This document shows, one piece after another, positions 25,792 through 61,317 of a stretch of 64,000 bases of DNA; within the stretch, counting starts at the first letter, position 1, and each line of letters starts with the position of its first letter. The notes under the pieces were generated by a model. That model saw nothing but the letters and a program-made list of their open reading frames with translations. It was not told where the DNA came from and did not search any database. The stretch comes from an uncultured Candidatus Saccharibacteria bacterium (GTDB lineage Bacteria; Patescibacteriota; Minisyncoccia; Phycocordibacterales; JACOZG01), in the NCBI GenBank assembly GCA_964591715.1, contig CAZQDR010000003.1:269-64268 (forward strand), written 5' to 3'. The position numbers and the translations under genes are program-made.

Positions 25792-26376
25792 TTAGAGGTG
25801 ACTGTGGTGTAAGGCTTGATTAATAATTTCGAGCGCCAGCTGCTGGCGCTCGGCCGACAACTCGAGCGGCGCCATGTCCCAGTCGTTGAAAGCAAAAATG
25901 ACCTCGAGCTCCGGGCGCTCCTCTACATAACCCAAACGGCGCAAAAGCCGCGCCACCCAAATTAGCTCAAAATTGACTAGCTCCGCTTCGGTCAAAAAAG
26001 GTCGTTCCAAAAAATGGGCTCCGCTTTTAAACTCCTCAAAAAAATCGGGCTGGGCCACTTCACCGGTTACTAAGCGCAAAATCAGTTGGGCAACCCGGGC
26101 CAGGAGCTGCAGGCGCACCGCTTCGCGGTGCGCCGCCAATTCCCCCGCCTCAACATGCACCACGCGCCAGACCTCCCGGCCTCGCACCAACGAGACCTCC
26201 GGCCAACTAAATAATTGCAGATTATAACGGAGCTTAGACTTTAATTCCCGCAAACCTTGGGCGGTAGCGTTAACCAAACCGTGATCACGCGTATACAAAG
26301 TCAGCGTCCGGGTTGCTTCGCTCGCCTCTCGGACACCCAACACGACCGCTGGCGTGGTGTAAATTTGATGCGACAT
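25792..26376 (-). CDS. recO: DNA repair protein RecO
   Basis: 194 aa; N-terminal OB fold pattern typical of RecO. Confidence 0.6.
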   Translation of the reverse strand: MSHQIYTTPAVVLGVREASEATRTLTLYTRDHGLVNATAQGLRELKSKLRYNLQLFSWPEVSLVRGREVWRVVHVEAGELAAHREAVRLQLLARVAQLILRLVTGEVAQPDFFEEFKSGAHFLERPFLTEAELVNFELIWVARLLRRLGYVEERPELEVIFAFNDWDMAPLELSAERQQLALEIINQALHHSHL

Positions 26377-29300
26377 TATTCGTAACGAAAAGCGCTCGCG
26401 CAGGTCGCGACTTTTATTTCGTGCTCATACTTCTCGGCCAAGCTCTGTTTGGCAATCGGTATAACCACTTCCGCTTGTTCTCCTGCCTTCAAGCCGCTTT
26501 CTTTACGCCAATCCTGAATTTCGCGAATCAAATCGCGCAGTTCCCCCTCCTCCTTAAGTTCAGGAGTGATAGTCAAATCAAGTTCTACCACTGCCGACAA
26601 GTTAGGATCAAAGATTACCGCTTTAACATTTACTTCGTCTTGGATAAGTTGAGCCAGTTCAGCGGAGAGCGGAGCACTTTTGGCTTTAAGTTCTTTTAGT
26701 GGTTGGCGAACTTTAATCGCGGCTTTGGCTCGCGCCTCTAAGCCACCCGAGACGAGCTGGCGCACGAGTTGCATCGCGGTAATAATTTCTTCGTCGCTCT
26801 TGTCGGCCTCGGGCCAATGCTCTAAGTGCACGCTCTCCGCGCCACCTTTCAATTTCAAATAAATTTCCTCAGCAACAAAGGGCGTAAATGGGGCCATCAA
26901 GCACGACAACACCAACAGCGTCCGGCGGAGCGTATCCATCACTGCCTGCGCCTCAGCGGGATCAGTGGGCTTAAAGCGATCGCGCGACCGGCGTAAATAC
27001 CAAGTTGATAAATCGTCCACAAATTCGTCGATGGGCCGCAAAGCCCGATCAAGCTCATAAGACTCCATCGCCGCTGTTACTAATCCAATCACTTCGTTAA
27101 GCCGGTCGTTAATCCAACGATCTAAAATATGAGTACTAGCGGCATCGCTCGGAACGTGGGCGCCGGCGTACAGTTCATAAAACGCCACCACGTTCCGCAG
27201 ACGGCCCAGCACCCGATTACTGGTCTCGCGCAAACCACGCTCCGAAAAATTAAATTCTTCAGCATGTACCGCTGGTGATGAGAGCAAGTAAAAACGCAAC
27301 GCGTCCGCGCCAAAAGTATCAATCGTGGGTTCCAGATCGGGATAATTTTTTAGACGCTTAGACATCTTTTGGCCATCCTCGGCTAAAATCAAACCATTCA
27401 CTACGACACGCTTAAAGGGGGGGCGATTAAAAAGTCCCAGCGAGAGCACCAGCAAAACATAAAACCAGCCGCGAGTTTGATCCAAACCTTCGGCAATAAA
27501 GTCCGCGGGAAAATGCTTTTCAAACTCTTCCTTGTTGGCAAACGGATAATGTAACTGGCCGTAAGGCATGGAACCGGACTCAAACCACACATCAAAAACA
27601 TCGGGTACGCGCGCCATCTCGGCACCACACTCGCAACGGAGTTTAACCTCATCAATATACGGCCGGTGAAAGTCGAGCTCGTAGGCTTGATTGTGCGGGA
27701 GAGCGACAAAGGGCAGTGGTCGCGATTCGGCGGTTTTTAAAAAGTAACGATCCTCACTCTGCGCGGCTTCGGCCTCGTGATCATTAAAGCCTTGGGCTCC
27801 CACCATCAATAACCAGCCCACCGCTTCGTGAGTGATCAGTAAAATATTTTTACCCGCATAACGAGCGTCAATCTCATACAGCGACTGGAGCGCCCGCGCC
27901 TTCACCTCATGAAAGTTTTCCCCCGCTGGTGGCGCCTTAGTAAAGCGCTCGGCTCGACCACTGAAAAAAGCGTGGAACTTAGCCACCGACCCCCCCTCCA
28001 ATTCGCCAAAGCCCACCTCGCGCAGGCGCTCATCCAAAACCACTTGATCGGCCGGTACTCCTAAAGCCTCCGCCATGAGCGCCGCCGTCTCTCGTGTTCG
28101 CAAAACTGGCGAAGTAATGATCAGATCAATTTTTTCCTTAGCCAAAGTTTTACCGGTGGCTTCTACTTGCTCACGGCCATTTTCCGTTAAATGATTGTCG
28201 CCATCGAGCGCCGAGGTAACAATGCTTTGTACGTTCGACTGGGCCTCGCCGTGACGCATGACCCAATAATTATTTTTTGGCTGCCGCTTAGCAGTGAGCT
28301 CCTCGAGTGAGCCAATCACTTCAATTTTTTTGCAGCTTTCGCAACGCCAGACCGGTAGCGGCGCCCCCCAGTAACGCGAACGCGATACTGCCCAATCGCG
28401 CGCCCCCTCCAGCCATTTACCAAAGCGACCGTCTTTAATATATTCCGGCACCCAAGTTACGCCCTCGTTTGCCTTCAAGAGTGCCTCCTTCATCGTACTT
28501 ACAGCAATAAACCAGGATGATGACGCGTAGTTTAAGAGAGGTGTATCGCAACGCCAACAATGAGGGTAGGGGTGAGTAATTTTTTCCTTCGCAAAAAAGG
28601 TGCCATGCTCCTGCAAATATTTTAAGACTGCAATGTCAGCCGAGAGACGCTCCTTCTCATCTTCACTCTTGGGTTTAACTGGCAGACCGGCAAAATCTTT
28701 GACCGCCGCTTTAAAGTGACCGCTAGTATCAACGTGCTGGATAAAAGGTAAATTTTTAGCCTGACCCAACTTTAAGTCGTCCTCGCCGAATGCCGGTGCA
28801 ATATGGACAATGCCGGTACCATCCTCGGTTGTCACAAAATCCGCGCCGTAAACCTGCCAACCGTTCTCCTTATTTTTCAGCGTCGTATCATTCTGATAAT
28901 AATCAAAAACTGGTTGATACTTTTTACCCACCAATTTTTGTCCGGTAAATGTTTCTTCAATGGTAAAATTATCGGTTAAAACTTTTGTGGCCAGCGCCTC
29001 CGCCACAATCAACTTAATTCCGCCCTTTTCGACTCGAACATAGTTCAGTTCGGGATTAACCGCCAGCGCCACATTACCTGGCAGCGTCCAAGGTGTCGTG
29101 GTCCAGGCCAACAAGTAAGTCCCCGGCTCATCAACCAGTTCAAATTTTACCGTCACCGACAAATCCGTGACATCTTTGTAACCCTGATTAACCTCAAAGT
29201 TAGCCAGCGTTGTCTCACAGCGCGGGCACAAATGCATAGACTTGTAACCTTCGTAGGCCAAGCCCTTGTCGTAGAGTTGTTTAAAAATCCACCACACCGT

Positions 29301-29771
29301 CTCGGTGTAACTGGAGTCCATCGTTTTATAATCGTTCTCCATGTCCACAAAACGGCCAATGCGGGGAATAATCCTTTTCCACTCGTCAGCATAACGGAGC
29401 ACGCTCTCTCGTGCCTTTTGGTTAAAGACGTCAATCCCCAACGCTTCAATATCCTTTTTGGTTTTTAGACCCAACTCTTTCTCGATCAGGTTCTCGATCG
29501 GCAAGCCGTGACAATCCCAACCCCAGCGACGCGCCACTCTAAAGCCGCGCATGGTTTGATAGCGTGGAATAGCGTCTTTAATCGAGGTCGGCAGCAAGTG
29601 ACCAAAGTGAGGCAAACCGGTCGCAAAGGGCGGCCCATCATAAAAAACGTACTCGCCTTTGGGCGCATCTTTAGCCAGGGACTTGGCGAAAATTTGGTGA
29701 TCTTGCCAGAACTTAAGGATCTCTTCCTCGCGTTTGGCAACATCGGATTTTTGGGGCAGAGCTTCGGCCAT
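26376..29771 (-). CDS. ileS: isoleucyl-tRNA synthetase carrying an inserted histidine-phosphatase (PGM-family) domain
   Basis: 1131 aa; HIGH (PHFGHLL), WDCHGLP, GWFY, KMSKR; insertion aa ~500-700 with RHGEAQSN ... TSPVLRTRETA ... LITHEAVGW motifs. Confidence 0.9.
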   Translation of the reverse strand: MAEALPQKSDVAKREEEILKFWQDHQIFAKSLAKDAPKGEYVFYDGPPFATGLPHFGHLLPTSIKDAIPRYQTMRGFRVARRWGWDCHGLPIENLIEKELGLKTKKDIEALGIDVFNQKARESVLRYADEWKRIIPRIGRFVDMENDYKTMDSSYTETVWWIFKQLYDKGLAYEGYKSMHLCPRCETTLANFEVNQGYKDVTDLSVTVKFELVDEPGTYLLAWTTTPWTLPGNVALAVNPELNYVRVEKGGIKLIVAEALATKVLTDNFTIEETFTGQKLVGKKYQPVFDYYQNDTTLKNKENGWQVYGADFVTTEDGTGIVHIAPAFGEDDLKLGQAKNLPFIQHVDTSGHFKAAVKDFAGLPVKPKSEDEKERLSADIAVLKYLQEHGTFFAKEKITHPYPHCWRCDTPLLNYASSSWFIAVSTMKEALLKANEGVTWVPEYIKDGRFGKWLEGARDWAVSRSRYWGAPLPVWRCESCKKIEVIGSLEELTAKRQPKNNYWVMRHGEAQSNVQSIVTSALDGDNHLTENGREQVEATGKTLAKEKIDLIITSPVLRTRETAALMAEALGVPADQVVLDERLREVGFGELEGGSVAKFHAFFSGRAERFTKAPPAGENFHEVKARALQSLYEIDARYAGKNILLITHEAVGWLLMVGAQGFNDHEAEAAQSEDRYFLKTAESRPLPFVALPHNQAYELDFHRPYIDEVKLRCECGAEMARVPDVFDVWFESGSMPYGQLHYPFANKEEFEKHFPADFIAEGLDQTRGWFYVLLVLSLGLFNRPPFKRVVVNGLILAEDGQKMSKRLKNYPDLEPTIDTFGADALRFYLLSSPAVHAEEFNFSERGLRETSNRVLGRLRNVVAFYELYAGAHVPSDAASTHILDRWINDRLNEVIGLVTAAMESYELDRALRPIDEFVDDLSTWYLRRSRDRFKPTDPAEAQAVMDTLRRTLLVLSCLMAPFTPFVAEEIYLKLKGGAESVHLEHWPEADKSDEEIITAMQLVRQLVSGGLEARAKAAIKVRQPLKELKAKSAPLSAELAQLIQDEVNVKAVIFDPNLSAVVELDLTITPELKEEGELRDLIREIQDWRKESGLKAGEQAEVVIPIAKQSLAEKYEHEIKVATCASAFRYE

Positions 29772-46700: not shown

Positions 46701-47926
46701 ACTTCGCCCCAAAACGGCAGTGGTAATCGCCGATTCATCGACCCGCCTCTGGCGGGTCGATGTTGTTTAGCCACCAAACTCGAGGCTAAAAATACCGCCG
46801 CGGTGCCGCGATCACAGTGGAGGCGATCAACTATTTGATAGAGTTCCCGCGCTTGGTCACCACGGCAACTGTCGCCAAAAAGGTCCAATTGCGCTGGCGA
46901 TCGATCTCTAAAATGACTCAGCGTTACCCCGGTACTTCGATAACGGCAACCAGAGCGATACCAACGCAAACAGTAGCGAGAGGCCAGCGTCACCAACTCT
47001 CCTGGTTCAACAATTGGTCGCTCAAGCCTAAGCTCAAAAGAGTGGTAACGAAAGTCTTGGGTTTTAAAAAAGAAAAACACATGACATGGCTCCAACTCGT
47101 AGGCCCGGGCCTCTCGGCAAGCCGCTTCAATGTTTTTAGACAAATGAGACAAGAGAAAAGAAAGTTCCGTGGTGGGTGGAGTAAAAGTGCCGGTCCGACT
47201 AATCGAGCCATAGCTCTCCCGACCAACTGTTCCCACTAACTTAACCGCCTTGCCGCCCAACTCCAACCACAACTCATAGTAGGGTTGGGCAAAATGCTCC
47301 CGCACCCACCACTCGGGCTTAGCGGCAAATTGAGCGGCCGTCTTTAACCCCAGAGCCGCCAGCGCCCGAGTGGTCCGCGGTCCAATACCCCAAACTTTAC
47401 CCAAGGCTAATTGCTGCAAGATTTCCAGACGATTGGTCTCATCCATTATCACTAAGCCCGAGGGCTTACGCCACTTCGAGGCCACTTTTGCCAAAACTTT
47501 AGTTTCCGCCAGGCCCAAAGAGAAGGTGGTATTCAATTCCCGCTCTAGAGCATTTTTAATTTCCGCCACTAAGGCTCGGTAGTCCAAGCGCCGCGGCAAC
47601 TGCCAACCAGTAAGATCAGCAAAACACTCATCAATACTGTACTCCTCAACCACAGGGGTATAGCGACGAACAATCGCATACATCCGCCGAGCGTAACTTC
47701 GATAGAGCTCGTAGTCAGAGGGCAAAATAACTACTTCCGGATAACGGCGTCGGATTTGGAACACTGGCATCCCCCGCGTCACACCTAAAGCCTTGGCTTC
47801 ATAACTAAGAGCCGCAGCTATCCCCCGATCTTGGCCGACCACCACTGGTTTACCGCGCAAAGACGGGTCACGAGAAATTTCACACCCAGCGAAAAAGGCA
47901 TCACCATCAACATGCAAAATAGGCAT
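46694..47926 (-). CDS. dinB: Y-family DNA polymerase (Pol IV/DinB-like)
   Basis: 410 aa; HVDGDAFFAGCE...SIDECFADLTG motifs. Confidence 0.85.
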   Translation of the reverse strand: MPILHVDGDAFFAGCEISRDPSLRGKPVVVGQDRGIAAALSYEAKALGVTRGMPVFQIRRRYPEVVILPSDYELYRSYARRMYAIVRRYTPVVEEYSIDECFADLTGWQLPRRLDYRALVAEIKNALERELNTTFSLGLAETKVLAKVASKWRKPSGLVIMDETNRLEILQQLALGKVWGIGPRTTRALAALGLKTAAQFAAKPEWWVREHFAQPYYELWLELGGKAVKLVGTVGRESYGSISRTGTFTPPTTELSFLLSHLSKNIEAACREARAYELEPCHVFFFFKTQDFRYHSFELRLERPIVEPGELVTLASRYCLRWYRSGCRYRSTGVTLSHFRDRSPAQLDLFGDSCRGDQARELYQIVDRLHCDRGTAAVFLASSLVAKQHRPARGGSMNRRLPLPFWGEVY

Positions 47927-47929
47927 CGC

Positions 47930-48499
47930 TTAACGATACTTACGTACCACTGCCGTTACAACAGCGGCAATTTTTAAATCATGCTCCGGATAAATCGGTT
48001 TGTAGTTTTTATTGGCGGGTTCTAGGTAAGCGCGAATCCCTTGGCGGCGGTAATACTTCATTGTCCAGCCGCCATCAATCTCGGCAATCACAATGTCACC
48101 CTCATGAGGAGTCCGGCCGCGTTCCACCAACACCATGTCACCCTCCTGAATGCCAGCATCAATCATGGAGTCGCCTTTTACCTCAAGCATGTAAGTCGCC
48201 TCTTTATTATTGATTAGATAATCATCTAAGCTTACTGTATCCAACACGTGCTCCTCAGCGATGGTGGGGAAACCAGCCTCCACCAAACCCAAAACTGGCA
48301 CCTCGCCAAACAACTTCAGCGGAATCAGTCGGCCGGTGCTATCTTTAGACAACATCCCCTCCTCGATTAATTTGTGGACCAGTTTAAAAGCGGCGTTTTT
48401 AGATTTGAAACCGCAGAGCGTCATGATCTCCTGATAGCTCGGCATGCGCTTGTGGCGTTGATAGAAGCCAATGATTTTATCTTTATAGCGATTCATCAT
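47930..48499 (-). CDS. lexA: LexA-like repressor (HTH + S24 peptidase)
   Basis: N-terminal wHTH, GDSM Ser, Lys dyad; upstream SOS box. Confidence 0.85.
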   Translation of the reverse strand: MMNRYKDKIIGFYQRHKRMPSYQEIMTLCGFKSKNAAFKLVHKLIEEGMLSKDSTGRLIPLKLFGEVPVLGLVEAGFPTIAEEHVLDTVSLDDYLINNKEATYMLEVKGDSMIDAGIQEGDMVLVERGRTPHEGDIVIAEIDGGWTMKYYRRQGIRAYLEPANKNYKPIYPEHDLKIAAVVTAVVRKYR

Positions 48500-56100: not shown

Positions 56101-57204
56101 CTAGGGCAACTCGTCAACAATTTTATCTTTCCGAGGCAAGCTGAAGTAGAATGACGAGCCCTTGCCCTTCTTACTTTCCAGCCACATTTTTCCTTTATGG
56201 GCCACCACTATTTGCTTGGCCACATATAAACCCAAGCCAATACCTTCGATCTTGAGATTAATCGCCCCCGTAGTCCGATAAAAGCGCCCGAAAATTTCAG
56301 GCTGTTCCGCCTCTGCAATACCCAACCCAAAATCTTTGACCGAGACCACAATGTTGTCCACCTTATCGACACCCTTAACAATCACCTCATCAGCACCGGG
56401 AGAATATTTGATAGCATTCGTTAGAAGATTGACCAAAACTTGAGCCAGTCTGTCTCGATCACCGTATACCTTCTCAGCAATTTTACCCTCGTGGAGAATC
56501 GTGTGCTTTTTGGTGACCATCTGAATCGTCCCAATTGTCTCCTCGATAAGAATATTCATATCAAAGAATTTCTTTTTCAATTGCAATCTCCCCTTCTGAA
56601 TCTTACCGACATCTAAAAGATAATCCATCAGCGTTACGATCTTATCTACTTGTTTATTTAAATCAACAACTGATTGGATATGAGCTTCATTATTAGATCG
56701 CCTAGTTTCCGCTTCGACAATTTCTCCGTACAGTTTCAGACTCGTAACCGGAGATTTAAGTTCGTGGGTGGCAGTGCTAATGAAAGAGTCCTTTCTTTTT
56801 TCAAACTCCGCCTTCTCGCTTAAGTCGCGCACAATAAAAGTAAAGCCTTGCGCGGCCGCCTTCTCATCATTTAAAGCAAAAATCAATCCACTAGCCCAAA
56901 ACTGCGTACCATCTTTGCGTAGATGATGACGTTCAATAACCACCTTGCCTTTGGCGACAGCCGCCAAAAGTTCTTTCCTTAGTTTGTGGCTATCAACATC
57001 TTCCTTGCGAAAAATAATCGACGCATTTTTACCCAGAACTTCAGGCTCTTTATAGCCAAATAGCTTTTGGGCTCCGCCATTCCAGCTGTTGATATGGCCC
57101 CTCCTGTCGGTCGTGAAAATCGCGTATCCAGTAAGACTCTCTACGAGCAAGCGGTAAAAATTATCATCTACCCGAAAACCTTCATGTTTGATTGGTTTTT
57201 TCAA
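56101..57204 (-). CDS. cytoplasmic PAS-domain sensor histidine kinase (orphan)
   Basis: PAS then HisKA H-box (ATHELKSP) then HATPase_c. Confidence 0.85.
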   Translation of the reverse strand: MKKPIKHEGFRVDDNFYRLLVESLTGYAIFTTDRRGHINSWNGGAQKLFGYKEPEVLGKNASIIFRKEDVDSHKLRKELLAAVAKGKVVIERHHLRKDGTQFWASGLIFALNDEKAAAQGFTFIVRDLSEKAEFEKRKDSFISTATHELKSPVTSLKLYGEIVEAETRRSNNEAHIQSVVDLNKQVDKIVTLMDYLLDVGKIQKGRLQLKKKFFDMNILIEETIGTIQMVTKKHTILHEGKIAEKVYGDRDRLAQVLVNLLTNAIKYSPGADEVIVKGVDKVDNIVVSVKDFGLGIAEAEQPEIFGRFYRTTGAINLKIEGIGLGLYVAKQIVVAHKGKMWLESKKGKGSSFYFSLPRKDKIVDELP

Positions 57205-57305: not shown

Positions 57306-57692
57306 TTAATTAAACTTGATTTCAAACGGGTACATACCCATGCCACAGGAACCTTTAAGTGTGCCAAGCTGACCACTGCCAATATCAATATCCGTTGACC
57401 CCGTTTGAGGCAGTAGCTTTGAAATATTCATACTGGCGATCCTAACCGATGACGAACAATCAAACGTATTTTGAGTGTTAAATCGAAGAATGGTCGGGAT
57501 CCCGGCTTTAGCCACACTCTTGCGAGGCTGAAAACCGCCCCGAGCCGTAATCTCTATTATTTGTTTCCCATCAACAATGGTGACATTATTGCCGTTCTCG
57601 GTTAACTCCGCGCCGTCTTTATTACCGGCAAACAGGAAAGCTCCTCCAATGAGAGCCAGGGCGATAAATATGGCGATAACGGTTGCTTTCAT
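57306..57692 (-). CDS. small exported cupredoxin-like/metal-binding protein
   Basis: ORF to 57737; start MKATV; C-terminal GSCGMGMYPFEIKF Cys/Met cluster. Confidence 0.5.
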   Translation of the reverse strand: MKATVIAIFIALALIGGAFLFAGNKDGAELTENGNNVTIVDGKQIIEITARGGFQPRKSVAKAGIPTILRFNTQNTFDCSSSVRIASMNISKLLPQTGSTDIDIGSGQLGTLKGSCGMGMYPFEIKFN

Positions 57693-57705
57693 AAATATTA
57701 TTATT

Positions 57706-58737
57706 TTAAAAATTAAACACTGGCGGAATAAGCCCAATGACCACCAAACTATTTATAAGGTTAAACAGCGCAAACATGATCACGATCAAGCCAGCCGTCT
57801 TAAAGAAAACTCCAGCCTTCGAACTTTTTTGGATGCTGAATGAACTAAAACTGATCAGGGCTAAAACGGGCAAAGTACCCAAAGCAAAAGCCAACATCGT
57901 TAACCCGCCAGCAATAAAGCTCCCCGTGGTCAGCGTGTAAAGCTGCATCGACTGAGTAAAACCGCAAGGCAAGAAGAAAGTGGCCACACCAACCGCGAGT
58001 GGGGTGAGAGTGTGATTAAGCTTTGAGACCCCATGAGCGTGTTTGGCAATAAACTTTGGCATCGAGGGCTGAAGCTTCTTAGCCCAATGAAAGGTGTCGA
58101 GAAGGTTAATCCCCAAAATAAGCATAACGGCAGCAATAACCAGACCCAAAATAAAAGTGGCGGTCGAACTTAGAGTAAAGGCTGACCCGATCGCCCCAAT
58201 AACTCCACCCAAAACAAAGAAAGAAACGATTCTTCCCCCATGGAACATCAGCTGGGGACGGACTTTGTCGCCCTCTTTAGCAAAGGTGGCGGACATCGAT
58301 AGAACCAGGCCACCCACTACCGCCATACAGGTCGAAAGCGAAGCGATTACTCCAACAATAAAAGTGGTGCCGTAGGAGACATTGCCGGCACTAACCAGGT
58401 TTACGATTCCCATTTTTTGAAGTCCGACAAATAAAACAGCAAAGGCAACCGCAATGGGAGCGGCAATCTTAAAGTCTCGCCACTTTGCTTGATGTTGCTG
58501 CTTAGATACCGAAACCGTATAGCCGTGGGATTTAAGAGGTACGGTGAGCTCCTCCGCGATCTGCTCTGGCGCCTGATTGCCAAAATTACCGACTACCTCT
58601 ACCGAATGATGTTTCAGACTGGATTTGACTTTAGTCAATTGAGGTAAATCACGCAACTCACTTTCGATCATGAGGACACAGGAATTACAGTGCATGCCGT
58701 GGACGTGAAAAATATAGGTTTGGTTTTGAGTGGCCAT
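57706..58737 (-). CDS. HMA-domain protein fused to DsbD_2/CcdA-like membrane domain
   Basis: N-terminal GMHCNSC; 6-8 TM with Cys in TM (LSTCMAV, FLPCGF). Confidence 0.7.
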   Translation of the reverse strand: MATQNQTYIFHVHGMHCNSCVLMIESELRDLPQLTKVKSSLKHHSVEVVGNFGNQAPEQIAEELTVPLKSHGYTVSVSKQQHQAKWRDFKIAAPIAVAFAVLFVGLQKMGIVNLVSAGNVSYGTTFIVGVIASLSTCMAVVGGLVLSMSATFAKEGDKVRPQLMFHGGRIVSFFVLGGVIGAIGSAFTLSSTATFILGLVIAAVMLILGINLLDTFHWAKKLQPSMPKFIAKHAHGVSKLNHTLTPLAVGVATFFLPCGFTQSMQLYTLTTGSFIAGGLTMLAFALGTLPVLALISFSSFSIQKSSKAGVFFKTAGLIVIMFALFNLINSLVVIGLIPPVFNF

Positions 58738-58742
58738 AGTAA

Positions 58743-60986
58743 TTATAATTTTTTAGCTTTGATTCTAAGCGAGTTGGAGACGACCGACACACTGGAAAAG
58801 GCCATCGCCAAACCGGCAAACACCGGATTCAACAGCCAGCCAAAGACTGGATAAAACACGCCCGCCGCCAGCGGGATGCCGATGATGTTATAGATAAAGG
58901 CCCAGAAAAGATTTTGCTTAATCCCCCGCATTGTCATCCGGGACAACTTAATAGCTTTTACCAGCTTCGAAATGTCGCCGCCCAACAGAGTAATACCGGC
59001 TGACTCGATCGCGACGTCAGTGCCCGTCCCCATCGCAATTCCCACGTCAGCTTGAGCTAAGGCGGGAGCATCATTAACCCCATCACCAGCCATGGCCACC
59101 GTTTTACCTTGCGATTGTAATTCTTTTATTTTTGCTAGTTTATCTTGAGGTAAAACATGAGCGACCACATCATCAATGCCCACCAGCGAGGCGATATAGT
59201 TGGCCGCCTTTTCATCATCGCCCGTTAGCATCACCACCTTAATTCCCAGCCGATGAAGAGCGGTTACCATTGGTTTTGATTCTGGTTTAATTTCGTCAGC
59301 CACCATCACAAAACCAATAACGTTCTCGGTCGTCGCCAGAATAACCGGCGTTTTACCTTGTGCGGTGAAGAGGTCTAGGGCGCTGACATCAAAAGCCAAC
59401 CCCCGCTCATTAATCAGCTTGGCATTGCCCACAAAATATCCGACCCCTTTAACTGATCCTTTGAGTCCTCTCCCCTGTAACGCTTCGAAGTCTTCCACAT
59501 TTTCGATGATTATTTTTTTCTCTTGCGCGTAATTAACAATCGCCTGAGCAATCGGGTGCTCGGACTTCTTCTCCAATGAGGCTAGGATGGAAATCAGTTC
59601 TTCGTCTGAAAGGTTAGAGAAGTGTTTAATAACCGTGTCTACCTCGTGAAGTTTTTCTAGCGTGGCGGCATCTTTAATCAAAATTCCCTCCTTGGCTCCC
59701 TTACCAACCCCCACAATAATAGCGGTCGGCGTTGCCAGCCCCAAGGCACAAGGACAGGCAATGACCAGCACTCCCACAAAGGAAACCAGCCCAAACGATA
59801 AAGCTTGCGAGAAACCAAGAGCGGGAATGCCGAGCATTAACCAGATTCCCAGAGTCAGGAACGAGATCGCCAAAGTGATCGGCACAAAAACACTGGAAAT
59901 TTTATCGGCCAGCGCTTGAATCGGAGCTTTACTGCCCTGGGCCTCTTCGACCAGCTTGATGATCTGCGCCAGCAGAGTCTCCGCTCCCACTTTGGTAGCG
60001 CTAAAAATAAATGAACCGGTCGTATTTATTGTTCCCGCCACCACACTGTCGCCGATTTTCTTTTGGGCTGGCATCGGTTCGCCCGTCACCATCGACTCAT
60101 TAACGAAAGAGGCACCCTCGGTAATTACTCCATCGACAGGGATCTTAGCTCCCGGTTTTATCACAATCAGATCTCCATGCTTGACCTCATTCACCGAAAT
60201 CTCGACTTCTTCTCCCCCTCGAACCACCAGAGCCGTTTTAGCTTGAAGGTTGAGAAGTTTTTCAATCGCATCACCTGTCTTAATTTTTGATCGCGCTTCC
60301 AAATATTTACCGAGCGCAATAAAGGTAATAACCACGATTGTCACATCATAATAAGTCTGTTCAACATTAATGAAGGGCTGGAGTGATGACTCAAAAGCCG
60401 TAACAATAAAACTATAGAGAAACGCCGCGGAAGTACCAATACCAATCAGCGTATCCATGTTGGCTTTGCCGTAGCGGAGGAAACGATAAAAACCAAGGAG
60501 ATAGGGTTTGCCCACCACCAATAGGGCATAGGCGGCAAAGATCGGTAAAAGGTGATGGAAAAATTCTTTGCTAACGGGCCCCATTTCTGGCACCAGATTA
60601 TACTGAGCGAGAATATCCCAACCCATCACCAAGATGCTAAAAATCGCCAAAGGAATTGCGGATAAAACTTTTGATCGCATATCGGCCACCTCCGCCAACT
60701 TCTCCTTCTTTGATTGATTTAACCCTAAGTGAGCGGCGTGCTCGTCCTCTGACATCCCCATCTCACTCGCGGTAGGCAGCTCCAAGGAATACCCCAACTT
60801 TTCTATTTTTTGAGAAAGGTGGTGGGCGTTAGTCTGAGATTCATCAAAGCTTACTTTGGCCGTTTCCGTCCCATAGTTCACTTCAACCGAATCAACACCA
60901 GCTGTTTTTTTAAAAGTTTTCTCGATGATGCCCGCGCAAGAGGCGCAATGCATTCCCTTTACCCGATAAATTTTAGTGTGACTCAT
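58743..60986 (-). CDS. copA: Cu+-type P1B ATPase homologue lacking the DKTGT phosphorylation motif
   Basis: HMA GMHCASC, TGEP, CPC, SEHP, GDGVNDAP, MAFSS all present; between CPC and SEHP reads ...LHEVDTVIKHFSNLSDEE; about 17 aa incl. FDKTGTLT absent. Confidence 0.8.
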   Translation of the reverse strand: MSHTKIYRVKGMHCASCAGIIEKTFKKTAGVDSVEVNYGTETAKVSFDESQTNAHHLSQKIEKLGYSLELPTASEMGMSEDEHAAHLGLNQSKKEKLAEVADMRSKVLSAIPLAIFSILVMGWDILAQYNLVPEMGPVSKEFFHHLLPIFAAYALLVVGKPYLLGFYRFLRYGKANMDTLIGIGTSAAFLYSFIVTAFESSLQPFINVEQTYYDVTIVVITFIALGKYLEARSKIKTGDAIEKLLNLQAKTALVVRGGEEVEISVNEVKHGDLIVIKPGAKIPVDGVITEGASFVNESMVTGEPMPAQKKIGDSVVAGTINTTGSFIFSATKVGAETLLAQIIKLVEEAQGSKAPIQALADKISSVFVPITLAISFLTLGIWLMLGIPALGFSQALSFGLVSFVGVLVIACPCALGLATPTAIIVGVGKGAKEGILIKDAATLEKLHEVDTVIKHFSNLSDEELISILASLEKKSEHPIAQAIVNYAQEKKIIIENVEDFEALQGRGLKGSVKGVGYFVGNAKLINERGLAFDVSALDLFTAQGKTPVILATTENVIGFVMVADEIKPESKPMVTALHRLGIKVVMLTGDDEKAANYIASLVGIDDVVAHVLPQDKLAKIKELQSQGKTVAMAGDGVNDAPALAQADVGIAMGTGTDVAIESAGITLLGGDISKLVKAIKLSRMTMRGIKQNLFWAFIYNIIGIPLAAGVFYPVFGWLLNPVFAGLAMAFSSVSVVSNSLRIKAKKL

Positions 60987-60991
60987 AAAAT

Positions 60992-61255
60992 CTATTTACG
61001 CTTAAGCTTATAGACCTTGAGCACTTCCCCGACAGCCTTATCGGGCTTGCCTTCTTTTATTTGTTTAACCACACAATGTGAGAGATGGTGCTCCATAAGC
61101 AGATCCTCCACATTCGACAAACCCTGCTTGGCGGCCGAGCTTTGGGTAATGACGTCAATGCAATAGGTCCCCTTCTCCACCATTTCCCGCAAGCCCCGGA
61201 CCTGACCTTCAATAATCTTTAGGCGACGAGCCAGCTTCTCCTTGTTTGTATTCAT
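60992..61255 (-). CDS. csoR: CsoR/RcnR-family metal-sensing repressor
   Basis: 87 aa; C..H..C signature (YCIDV...HLSHC). Confidence 0.85.
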   Translation of the reverse strand: MNTNKEKLARRLKIIEGQVRGLREMVEKGTYCIDVITQSSAAKQGLSNVEDLLMEHHLSHCVVKQIKEGKPDKAVGEVLKVYKLKRK

Positions 61256-61266
61256 AGTTCTATCCT

Positions 61267-61284
61267 ATACCCCCCAGGGGGTAT
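61267..61284. promoter_or_regulatory. CsoR-type operator: perfect inverted repeat ATACCCCC-CA-GGGGGTAT overlapping a TTGACG-17-TATAGG promoter
   Basis: seen directly, 12-29 nt upstream of csoR ATG. Confidence 0.65.
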
Positions 61285-61317
61285 CCGTCAAGTATAGATA
61301 TCCCCCTTACCGTCAAA

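Follow-up and report, generated by a model that had tools for sequence, protein, structure and literature searches.

This work describes a copA-type gene for a copper-transporting P1B-1 ATPase whose product lacks the phosphorylation loop that characterizes its family. The gene lies in a stretch of 64,000 nucleotides (nt) from an uncultured Candidatus Saccharibacteria bacterium (contig CAZQDR010000003.1, positions 269 to 64,268; assembly GCA_964591715.1), and this whole stretch is referred to as the window. The gene encodes a protein of 747 amino acids (aa) and is part of a copper cassette that comprises, in this order, a CsoR box, csoR, copA, a gene for a membrane protein with HMA and DsbD_2 domains, and a cupredoxin-like gene. 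All of these elements are present, and csoR ends 5 nt before the ATG of copA. Judged from its sequence, the cassette forms a complete, apparently CsoR-regulated operon on the minus strand (coordinates in Table 1).

By descent, the window protein is clearly the CopA of a cassette that is found across the Patescibacteria. Its closest solved structures are the CopA proteins of A. fulgidus (PDB 3J09, E 5e-158) and L. pneumophila (PDB 3RFU, E 6.5e-155), both matched nearly end to end with HMMER. Pfam assigns an HMA domain (residues 7-66, E 1e-16), an E1-E2_ATPase domain and a Hydrolase (HAD) domain, and the protein passes the cut-offs of TIGR01511 (ATPase-IB1_Cu; 562.9 bits versus 397) and TIGR01525 (585.9 bits versus 346). 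Such scores show homology by descent and should not be taken as proof of activity. An earlier note, made from the sequence alone, had reported that all P1B-ATPase landmarks (HMA, TGE, CPC, HP, GDGxNDxP and MxxSS) are in place, and the motif reading, Pfam and TIGR01511 bear this out. The protein is collinear with both solved CopA proteins over the full length and has HMA, TGE, CPC, SEHP, TGD (P-domain, residues 588-590), GDGxNDxP, YN and MxxSS in common with them.

Unlike these two proteins, it is devoid of the DKTGT loop and of the hinge and strand that follow (17 aa), and it is predicted to be unable to form the aspartyl-phosphate. The loss is read directly from the sequence and does not rest on a statistical pattern. 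Residues 449-456, where the earlier note had located it, read VDTVIKHF, and a D[KR]TG motif, the defining feature of P-type ATPases, is absent from all 747 aa. In the HMMER alignments to 3J09 and 3RFU, a gap in the query opens directly after VDTVI, opposite the DKTGT loop (Fdktgtlt). In the Pfam Hydrolase profile (191 positions), the match does not start until position 27, which indicates that motif I is missing. Set against the solved CopA structures and what is generally known of P-type ATPases, we take the lost block to comprise the last part of P-domain strand 1, the phosphorylation loop, and the first hinge with the strand that leads into the N-domain.

The extent of the loss was determined by comparison with relatives. 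A protein search of a collection of 5.8 billion clusters (about 15 billion proteins) yielded 120 listed sequences, namely the window protein (P0001) and 119 homologues with 79-84% identity and 756-784 aa, mostly from metagenome-assembled genomes (MAGs) of Patescibacteria/Paceibacteria. In the alignment of these 120 sequences, a single block of 17 consecutive columns is gapped in the window protein alone. Where the homologues read VDTV[IV]-VDKTGTITIGKPTLVDI-QNLSxLKDEEL, the window protein reads VDTVI-KHFSNLSDEEL. The earlier estimate of about 17 aa lost in frame can thus be made exact: 17 codons, or 51 nt, corresponding to VDKTGTITIGKPTLVDI.

None of the relatives that cover the site shares this loss. 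DKTGT is kept in all 119 listed homologues. A tblastn search against 80 loci from GTDB species representatives gave a single collinear match at each locus, except for one (L078) with a frame change near the start. The motif is present in each of the 79 loci that cover the site, while the remaining locus (L071) is without it because its contig ends at residue 422. At 90% identity, the window protein forms a singleton cluster with one member from one NCBI contig (66,936 bp). Scans of JGI metagenome contigs with degenerate DNA patterns found no match for the junction peptide VDTVIKHFSNL, nor for the lineage-specific left flank ATLEKLHEVDTVI. Since all homologues and covering loci are intact and the cluster has a single member, the deletion is, as far as these sequence collections reach, private to one contig and no lineage trait. 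The earlier note had called for a comparison with orthologues and held that intact ones would mean an artefact. The orthologues are indeed intact throughout, but the conclusion is too strong, as a real and recent deletion predicts the same outcome.

Long match spans had raised the suspicion that relatives carry an intein or mobile insertion near DKTGT, of which the window would show an imprecise excision. This candidate was rejected, as every locus gives a single collinear high-scoring segment pair and the extra length consists of downstream HMA-domain genes. The deviating locus L078 (1062-2800), on a contig of another MAG, holds a copA of this gene family in which the match shifts from frame 3 to frame 2 near residues 136-141. 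Either this copy is frameshifted or the sequence contains an error, so disrupted cassette copies are not unique to the window. According to the record titles of the 80 loci (L001-L080), CopA proteins with 65-80% identity occur in MAGs labeled Paceibacterota, Nomurabacteria, Kaiserbacteria, Gracilibacteria, Peregrinibacteria, Moraniibacteriota, ‘Saccharibacteria’ and even ‘Gammaproteobacteria’. Together with saturated synonymous sites (proportion of synonymous differences, pS, up to 0.85), this broad occurrence suggests old horizontal transfer under strong constraint, imprecise taxonomic labels, or a combination of the two.

The cassette itself is of a known type. The product of csoR displays the features that mark CsoR/RcnR repressors: the fold, the Cys-His-Cys ligand set for Cu(I) and, as putative operator, a GC-rich palindrome in its own promoter. 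Its match to the RicR-like family of NCBIfam (E 1.6e-20) falls below the cut-off. The core of the palindrome, TACCCC-N4-GGGGTA, occurs once in the window, with 0 occurrences expected by chance, and in 25 of 83 related loci the same core precedes csoR, about 300 nt ahead of copA. The HIT gene, which lies upstream, has a strong terminator at 61354-61324. The Patescibacteria cassette csoR-copA-(DUF305)-HMA/DsbD_2-cupredoxin (e.g. L081 and L083) agrees with the window in gene order, CsoR box and CopA sequence (79-84% identity). The DUF305 gene follows copA in some cassettes and is absent from the window version and from the second cassette of L081.

In contrast to the window, CopA is intact in all other copies, with a length of 756-784 aa, and the genomic neighbors differ. 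The cassette neighbors are HIT, RibD_C, a PAS histidine kinase and an RND pump in the window; they are large serine recombinases, ParB-methyltransferases, and restriction-modification or toxin genes in L081-L083. Only the cassette, not the flanks, is shared with related loci, and its GC content is unremarkable (43-51% throughout, flanks included). Because it lies next to recombinases in L081-L083, occurs in tandem in L081/L082 and has unshared flanks, the cassette looks mobile and, on this evidence, would be a widespread copper-resistance module of Patescibacteria that is sometimes present in several copies. Given such duplications, the loss of one copA copy would be unremarkable and redundancy plausible. 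The earlier note had called this gene the only copper exporter of the locus. This holds for P-type ATPases, as no second one was found in the 64-kilobase (kb) window, and the downstream RND pump is not typed as CusA. The genome with the closest intact orthologue (GCA_021734945.1) carries the csoR-copA-HMA/DsbD_2-cupredoxin cassette twice in tandem (L081 9734-18844 and L082 830-9940), with CopA proteins of 771 and 764 aa. Large serine recombinase and ParB-N6/N4 methyltransferase genes flank this pair, which suggests carriage on an integrative element.

Table 1. Features of the copper cassette and its downstream neighbors in the window, with positions counted from the first letter of the window.
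Feature	Position	Strand	Basis or remark
sigma-70-like promoter TTGACG-18-TAGGAT, upstream of csoR	61262..61291	-	consensus match only
CsoR-box-like palindrome TACCCC-N4-GGGGTA (core of ATACCCCC-TG-GGGGGTAT), between -35 and -10	61268..61283	.	sequence
csoR-family copper-sensing repressor, 87 aa, C32/H57/C61 present	60992..61255	-	Pfam Trns_repr_metal PF02583, E 9e-25
copA-type P1B-1 ATPase gene, 747 aa, with in-frame 51-nt deletion	58743..60986	-	open reading frame, PDB, Pfam, TIGR01511
CASC (CxxC) of the N-terminal HMA metal-binding domain, residues 14-17	60936..60947	-	Pfam and motif reading
TGE dephosphorylation motif, A-domain, residues 301-303, intact	60078..60086	-	motif reading
CPC transmembrane Cu(I) site, transmembrane helix 4, residues 411-413, intact	59748..59756	-	motif reading
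VDTVIKHF, residues 449-456, end of P-domain strand 1 straight into N-domain linker	59619..59642	-	sequence reading
Deletion junction, I453 (59628-59630) joined to K454 (59625-59627), 17 codons absent between	59625..59630	-	alignment
SEHP nucleotide-binding motif, N-domain, residues 475-478, intact	59553..59564	-	motif reading
GDGVNDAP hinge motif, P-domain, residues 634-641, intact	59064..59087	-	motif reading
IYN (YN Cu(I) ligands), transmembrane helix 5, residues 698-700	58887-58895	-	motif reading
MAFSS (MxxSS) Cu(I) ligands, transmembrane helix 6, residues 728-732, intact	58791..58805	-	motif reading
HMA + DsbD_2 membrane protein, 343 aa, conserved partner gene	57706..58737	-	Pfam; follows copA in L081, L082, L083
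Cupredoxin-like protein, 143 aa, last conserved cassette gene	57306..57737	-	Pfam Cupredoxin_1, E 2e-7; same position in L081-L083
PAS-HisKA-HATPase kinase, directly downstream of the cassette	56101..57204	-	domain matches
HlyD/RND-adaptor-like protein, 507 aa	54550..56073	-	domain matches
AcrB-family RND transporter, 1135 aa	51136..54543	-	under all NCBIfam cut-offs, not typed CusA/CzcA

Outside the missing block, copA bears the marks of a constrained gene. Its open reading frame (ORF) has no stops or frameshifts. To gauge erosion, columns in which at least 98% of the other sequences carry the same residue were taken for each of the 120 aligned sequences, and its changes there were counted (leave-one-out). 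The window protein has 8 such changes among 99 differences from the consensus (K51Q, T152A, F156L, D296N, M345L, A375S, K506R and A573M), compared to 7-9 among 90-98 differences in equally isolated intact relatives (P0106, P0090, P0104, P0073 and P0108) and 1 in the median sequence. Its nearest-neighbor identity is low (86%), in line with these peers. As the leave-one-out count against equally isolated sequences is a fair test, there is no excess of changes in the window protein. A Tajima-type relative-rate test with the consensus as outgroup gave 68 versus 22 changes, an excess in the window protein, and was rejected, since a consensus lies nearer to the densely sampled clades and so biases the test. 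The change D296N (60099-60101) is the only one of the eight that adjoins a catalytic motif: the A-domain motif VDESM..TGE reads VNESMVTGE, where no fewer than 98% of the 119 homologues have Asp.

At the DNA level, the closest orthologues are 69-73% identical, and the nearest relative shows a nonsynonymous divergence (dN) of 0.089 with a saturated pS of 0.85 (Nei-Gojobori). A pairwise dN/dS ratio or a branch-specific estimate was ruled out by the saturation of synonymous sites (pS 0.76-0.85); the qualitative finding of strong long-term constraint stands. Stop-creating substitutions make up 3.9% of those possible in the ORF, and an unconstrained ORF would have a probability below 0.05 of staying free of stops past about 3.4% neutral divergence, or sooner when indels are counted. 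These values imply that strong purifying selection acted on the lineage throughout almost its whole separate history. With a low dN and a stop-free ORF, three options are left: a lesion much younger than the branch, a lesion that is not real, or continued selection on the protein. AlphaFold2 modeling used an alignment of 30 sequences, which is too shallow, and gave similar values for the window protein (mean predicted local distance difference test (pLDDT) 53.8, predicted template modeling score (pTM) 0.27) and the intact control P0002 (53.5 and 0.27), the two models being weak in the same regions. As both are modeled equally badly for this reason, the structural effect of the deletion can be read from neither.

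The DNA of the orthologues offers a possible origin of the deletion. In these sequences, the lost block opens right after an ATT (Ile) codon and itself closes in ATT (GTTATT/...GATATT/, strokes marking its ends). With the block between brackets, L049 reads ..ACC GTT ATT [GTA GAT AAA ... CTT GTT GAT ATT] GAA and L074 reads ..ACG GTC ATT [GTC GAC ... GTC GAT ATT] CAA, while the window DNA reads ..ACG GTT ATT / AAA CAC. The microhomology at the block ends thus amounts to 3-4 exact bases (TATT), or 5 of 6 (GTTATT versus GATATT). This is compatible with replication slippage, illegitimate recombination or microhomology-mediated joining between short repeats. A search of the window for repeats or hairpins at the junction found nothing relevant.

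Slippage or illegitimate recombination between short repeats would have removed 51 nt of copA in one genome, and with them the end of P-domain strand 1, the DKTGT loop with its aspartate, and the first hinge and N-domain strand. Autophosphorylation of the DKTGT aspartate defines P-type ATPases and is required for their E1/E2 cycle (PMC10654040). Without this aspartate, the E1P and E2P intermediates would not form, and with one of the two strands of the P-N hinge gone as well, ATP could not be coupled to transport. The product may still bind Cu(I) at the HMA and CPC/YN/MxxSS sites without pumping, which would make it a null allele. With its phosphorylation site gone, the protein is predicted to show no Cu(I)-dependent ATP hydrolysis, to form no phosphoenzyme and to export no copper, as follows from established P-type ATPase enzymology.

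We consider a recent, private and real in-frame deletion of 51 nt, resulting in a null allele of an ordinary copper-resistance cassette, to be the probable explanation (probability about 0.7). By its sequence, the gene is to be placed in a known family as a disabled allele, being neither a working member nor a new family. The dead or decaying gene that the earlier note had proposed is thereby upheld in part: a dead pump fits the evidence, but decay beyond the deletion does not, given that the remaining ORF looks fully constrained. Several points weigh against a real null allele. The evidence fits a real deletion and an artefact alike, and only reads separate them, which also applies to the sequencing or assembly deletion that the earlier note had offered. 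An open ORF and intact motifs are equally expected of a protein that is still under selection. The evidence on a second copA covers the 64-kb window and not the whole genome. Lastly, the microhomology is weak and derives from orthologues at about 71-73% DNA identity instead of the true ancestor; short matches are common by chance, and it could be coincidence.

A sequencing, amplification or assembly artefact, with a normal CopA as the true gene, is unlikely in our view. It could stem from a chimeric or mis-joined read, for instance after whole-genome amplification, from a polishing error or from the choice of a rare variant. Such an origin would account for a single sighting of the allele on one contig, for the intactness of every relative and for a remaining gene that looks perfectly functional, as if the true gene works. 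However, De Bruijn assemblers do not usually lose a segment of 51 nt unless a repeat of k-mer length is present, whereas only 3-6 nt of similarity flank the block in orthologues and no repeat surrounds the junction in the window. An artefact also provides no reason for an in-frame loss, though chance gives one in three. The neighboring long genes, moreover, are free of frameshifts and truncations. The window is chromosomal, with unbroken long ORFs and genes for isoleucyl-tRNA synthetase (IleRS), ArgRS, a MetRS-like protein, FtsK and SHMT, and intact long ORFs nearby encode the IleRS (1131 aa), the RND transporter (1135 aa) and FtsK (738 aa). Judged by these ORFs, the window is well assembled near copA. 

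Far less probable is a pseudo-pump that is induced through CsoR, kept by selection and independent of phosphorylation, which would bind or buffer Cu(I) at the membrane, hand it off to the HMA/DsbD_2 and cupredoxin partners, or act as a regulator. Its ORF is open and in frame under an intact predicted CsoR-controlled promoter, all metal-binding sites are kept, and a precedent exists in alveolate flippase-guanylate cyclase fusions (P4GC), whose P4-ATPase modules are essential although their DKTGT aspartate is changed or almost nothing of the motif is left, as in Cryptosporidium (PMC13466520). Those eukaryotic modules, however, are joined to a cyclase, are conserved from lineage to lineage and show degeneration in several motifs, whereas the window protein has one clean deletion on one bacterial contig and is otherwise pristine. 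The absence of a second sequence with the same architecture gives no sign of persistence over time, and SEHP, TGD, GDGxNDxP and TGE, which serve ATP binding and phosphoryl transfer only, are still perfect, where drift would be expected in a long-lived pseudoenzyme. An active pump with another catalytic residue or mechanism is extremely improbable. The open reading frame alone speaks for it, while the protein has no D[KR]TG or similar motif elsewhere, the removal of one P-N hinge strand would abolish the geometry of ATP delivery, and all known P-type ATPases use the DKTGT aspartate (PMC10654040). The unprecedented mechanism suggested in the earlier note is therefore dropped, there being neither a replacement Asp motif nor a second sequence of this architecture.

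For annotation, the gene should be labeled as a probably inactive copA allele or possible sequence error, and it should not be counted as a functional exporter when copper tolerance is inferred. The case illustrates that a curated family cut-off (TIGR01511) can be passed without the catalytic residue. A real deletion would represent a natural knock-out in a mobile-looking and sometimes duplicated cassette and would fit frequent gain and loss of such cassettes in Patescibacteria. If the pseudo-pump were true, it would be the first pseudoenzyme derived from a bacterial P1B-ATPase; wider interest arises only if selection maintains the allele.

Elsewhere in the window, some observations stand apart from copA. 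Patescibacteria are not expected to have an outer membrane, and the RND pump with its adaptor is curious in such an organism. No tRNA genes and no Rfam families at the gathering threshold were found in the window (1-64000), though its dense coding includes several aminoacyl-tRNA synthetase genes. One of these, the 1131-aa IleRS (26376-29771, minus strand; match to PDB IleRS 8C8U, E 1e-230), has an unusual insertion: residues 503-667 form a complete histidine-phosphatase domain (His_Phos_1, PhoE-like; PDB 1EBB/1H2E) between the synthetase halves. At 46694-48499 on the minus strand, a gene for a Y-family DNA polymerase (IMS domains, 410 aa) adjoins one for an S24 peptidase (LexA/UmuD-like, 189 aa), together resembling a umuDC-like or SOS mutagenesis pair.

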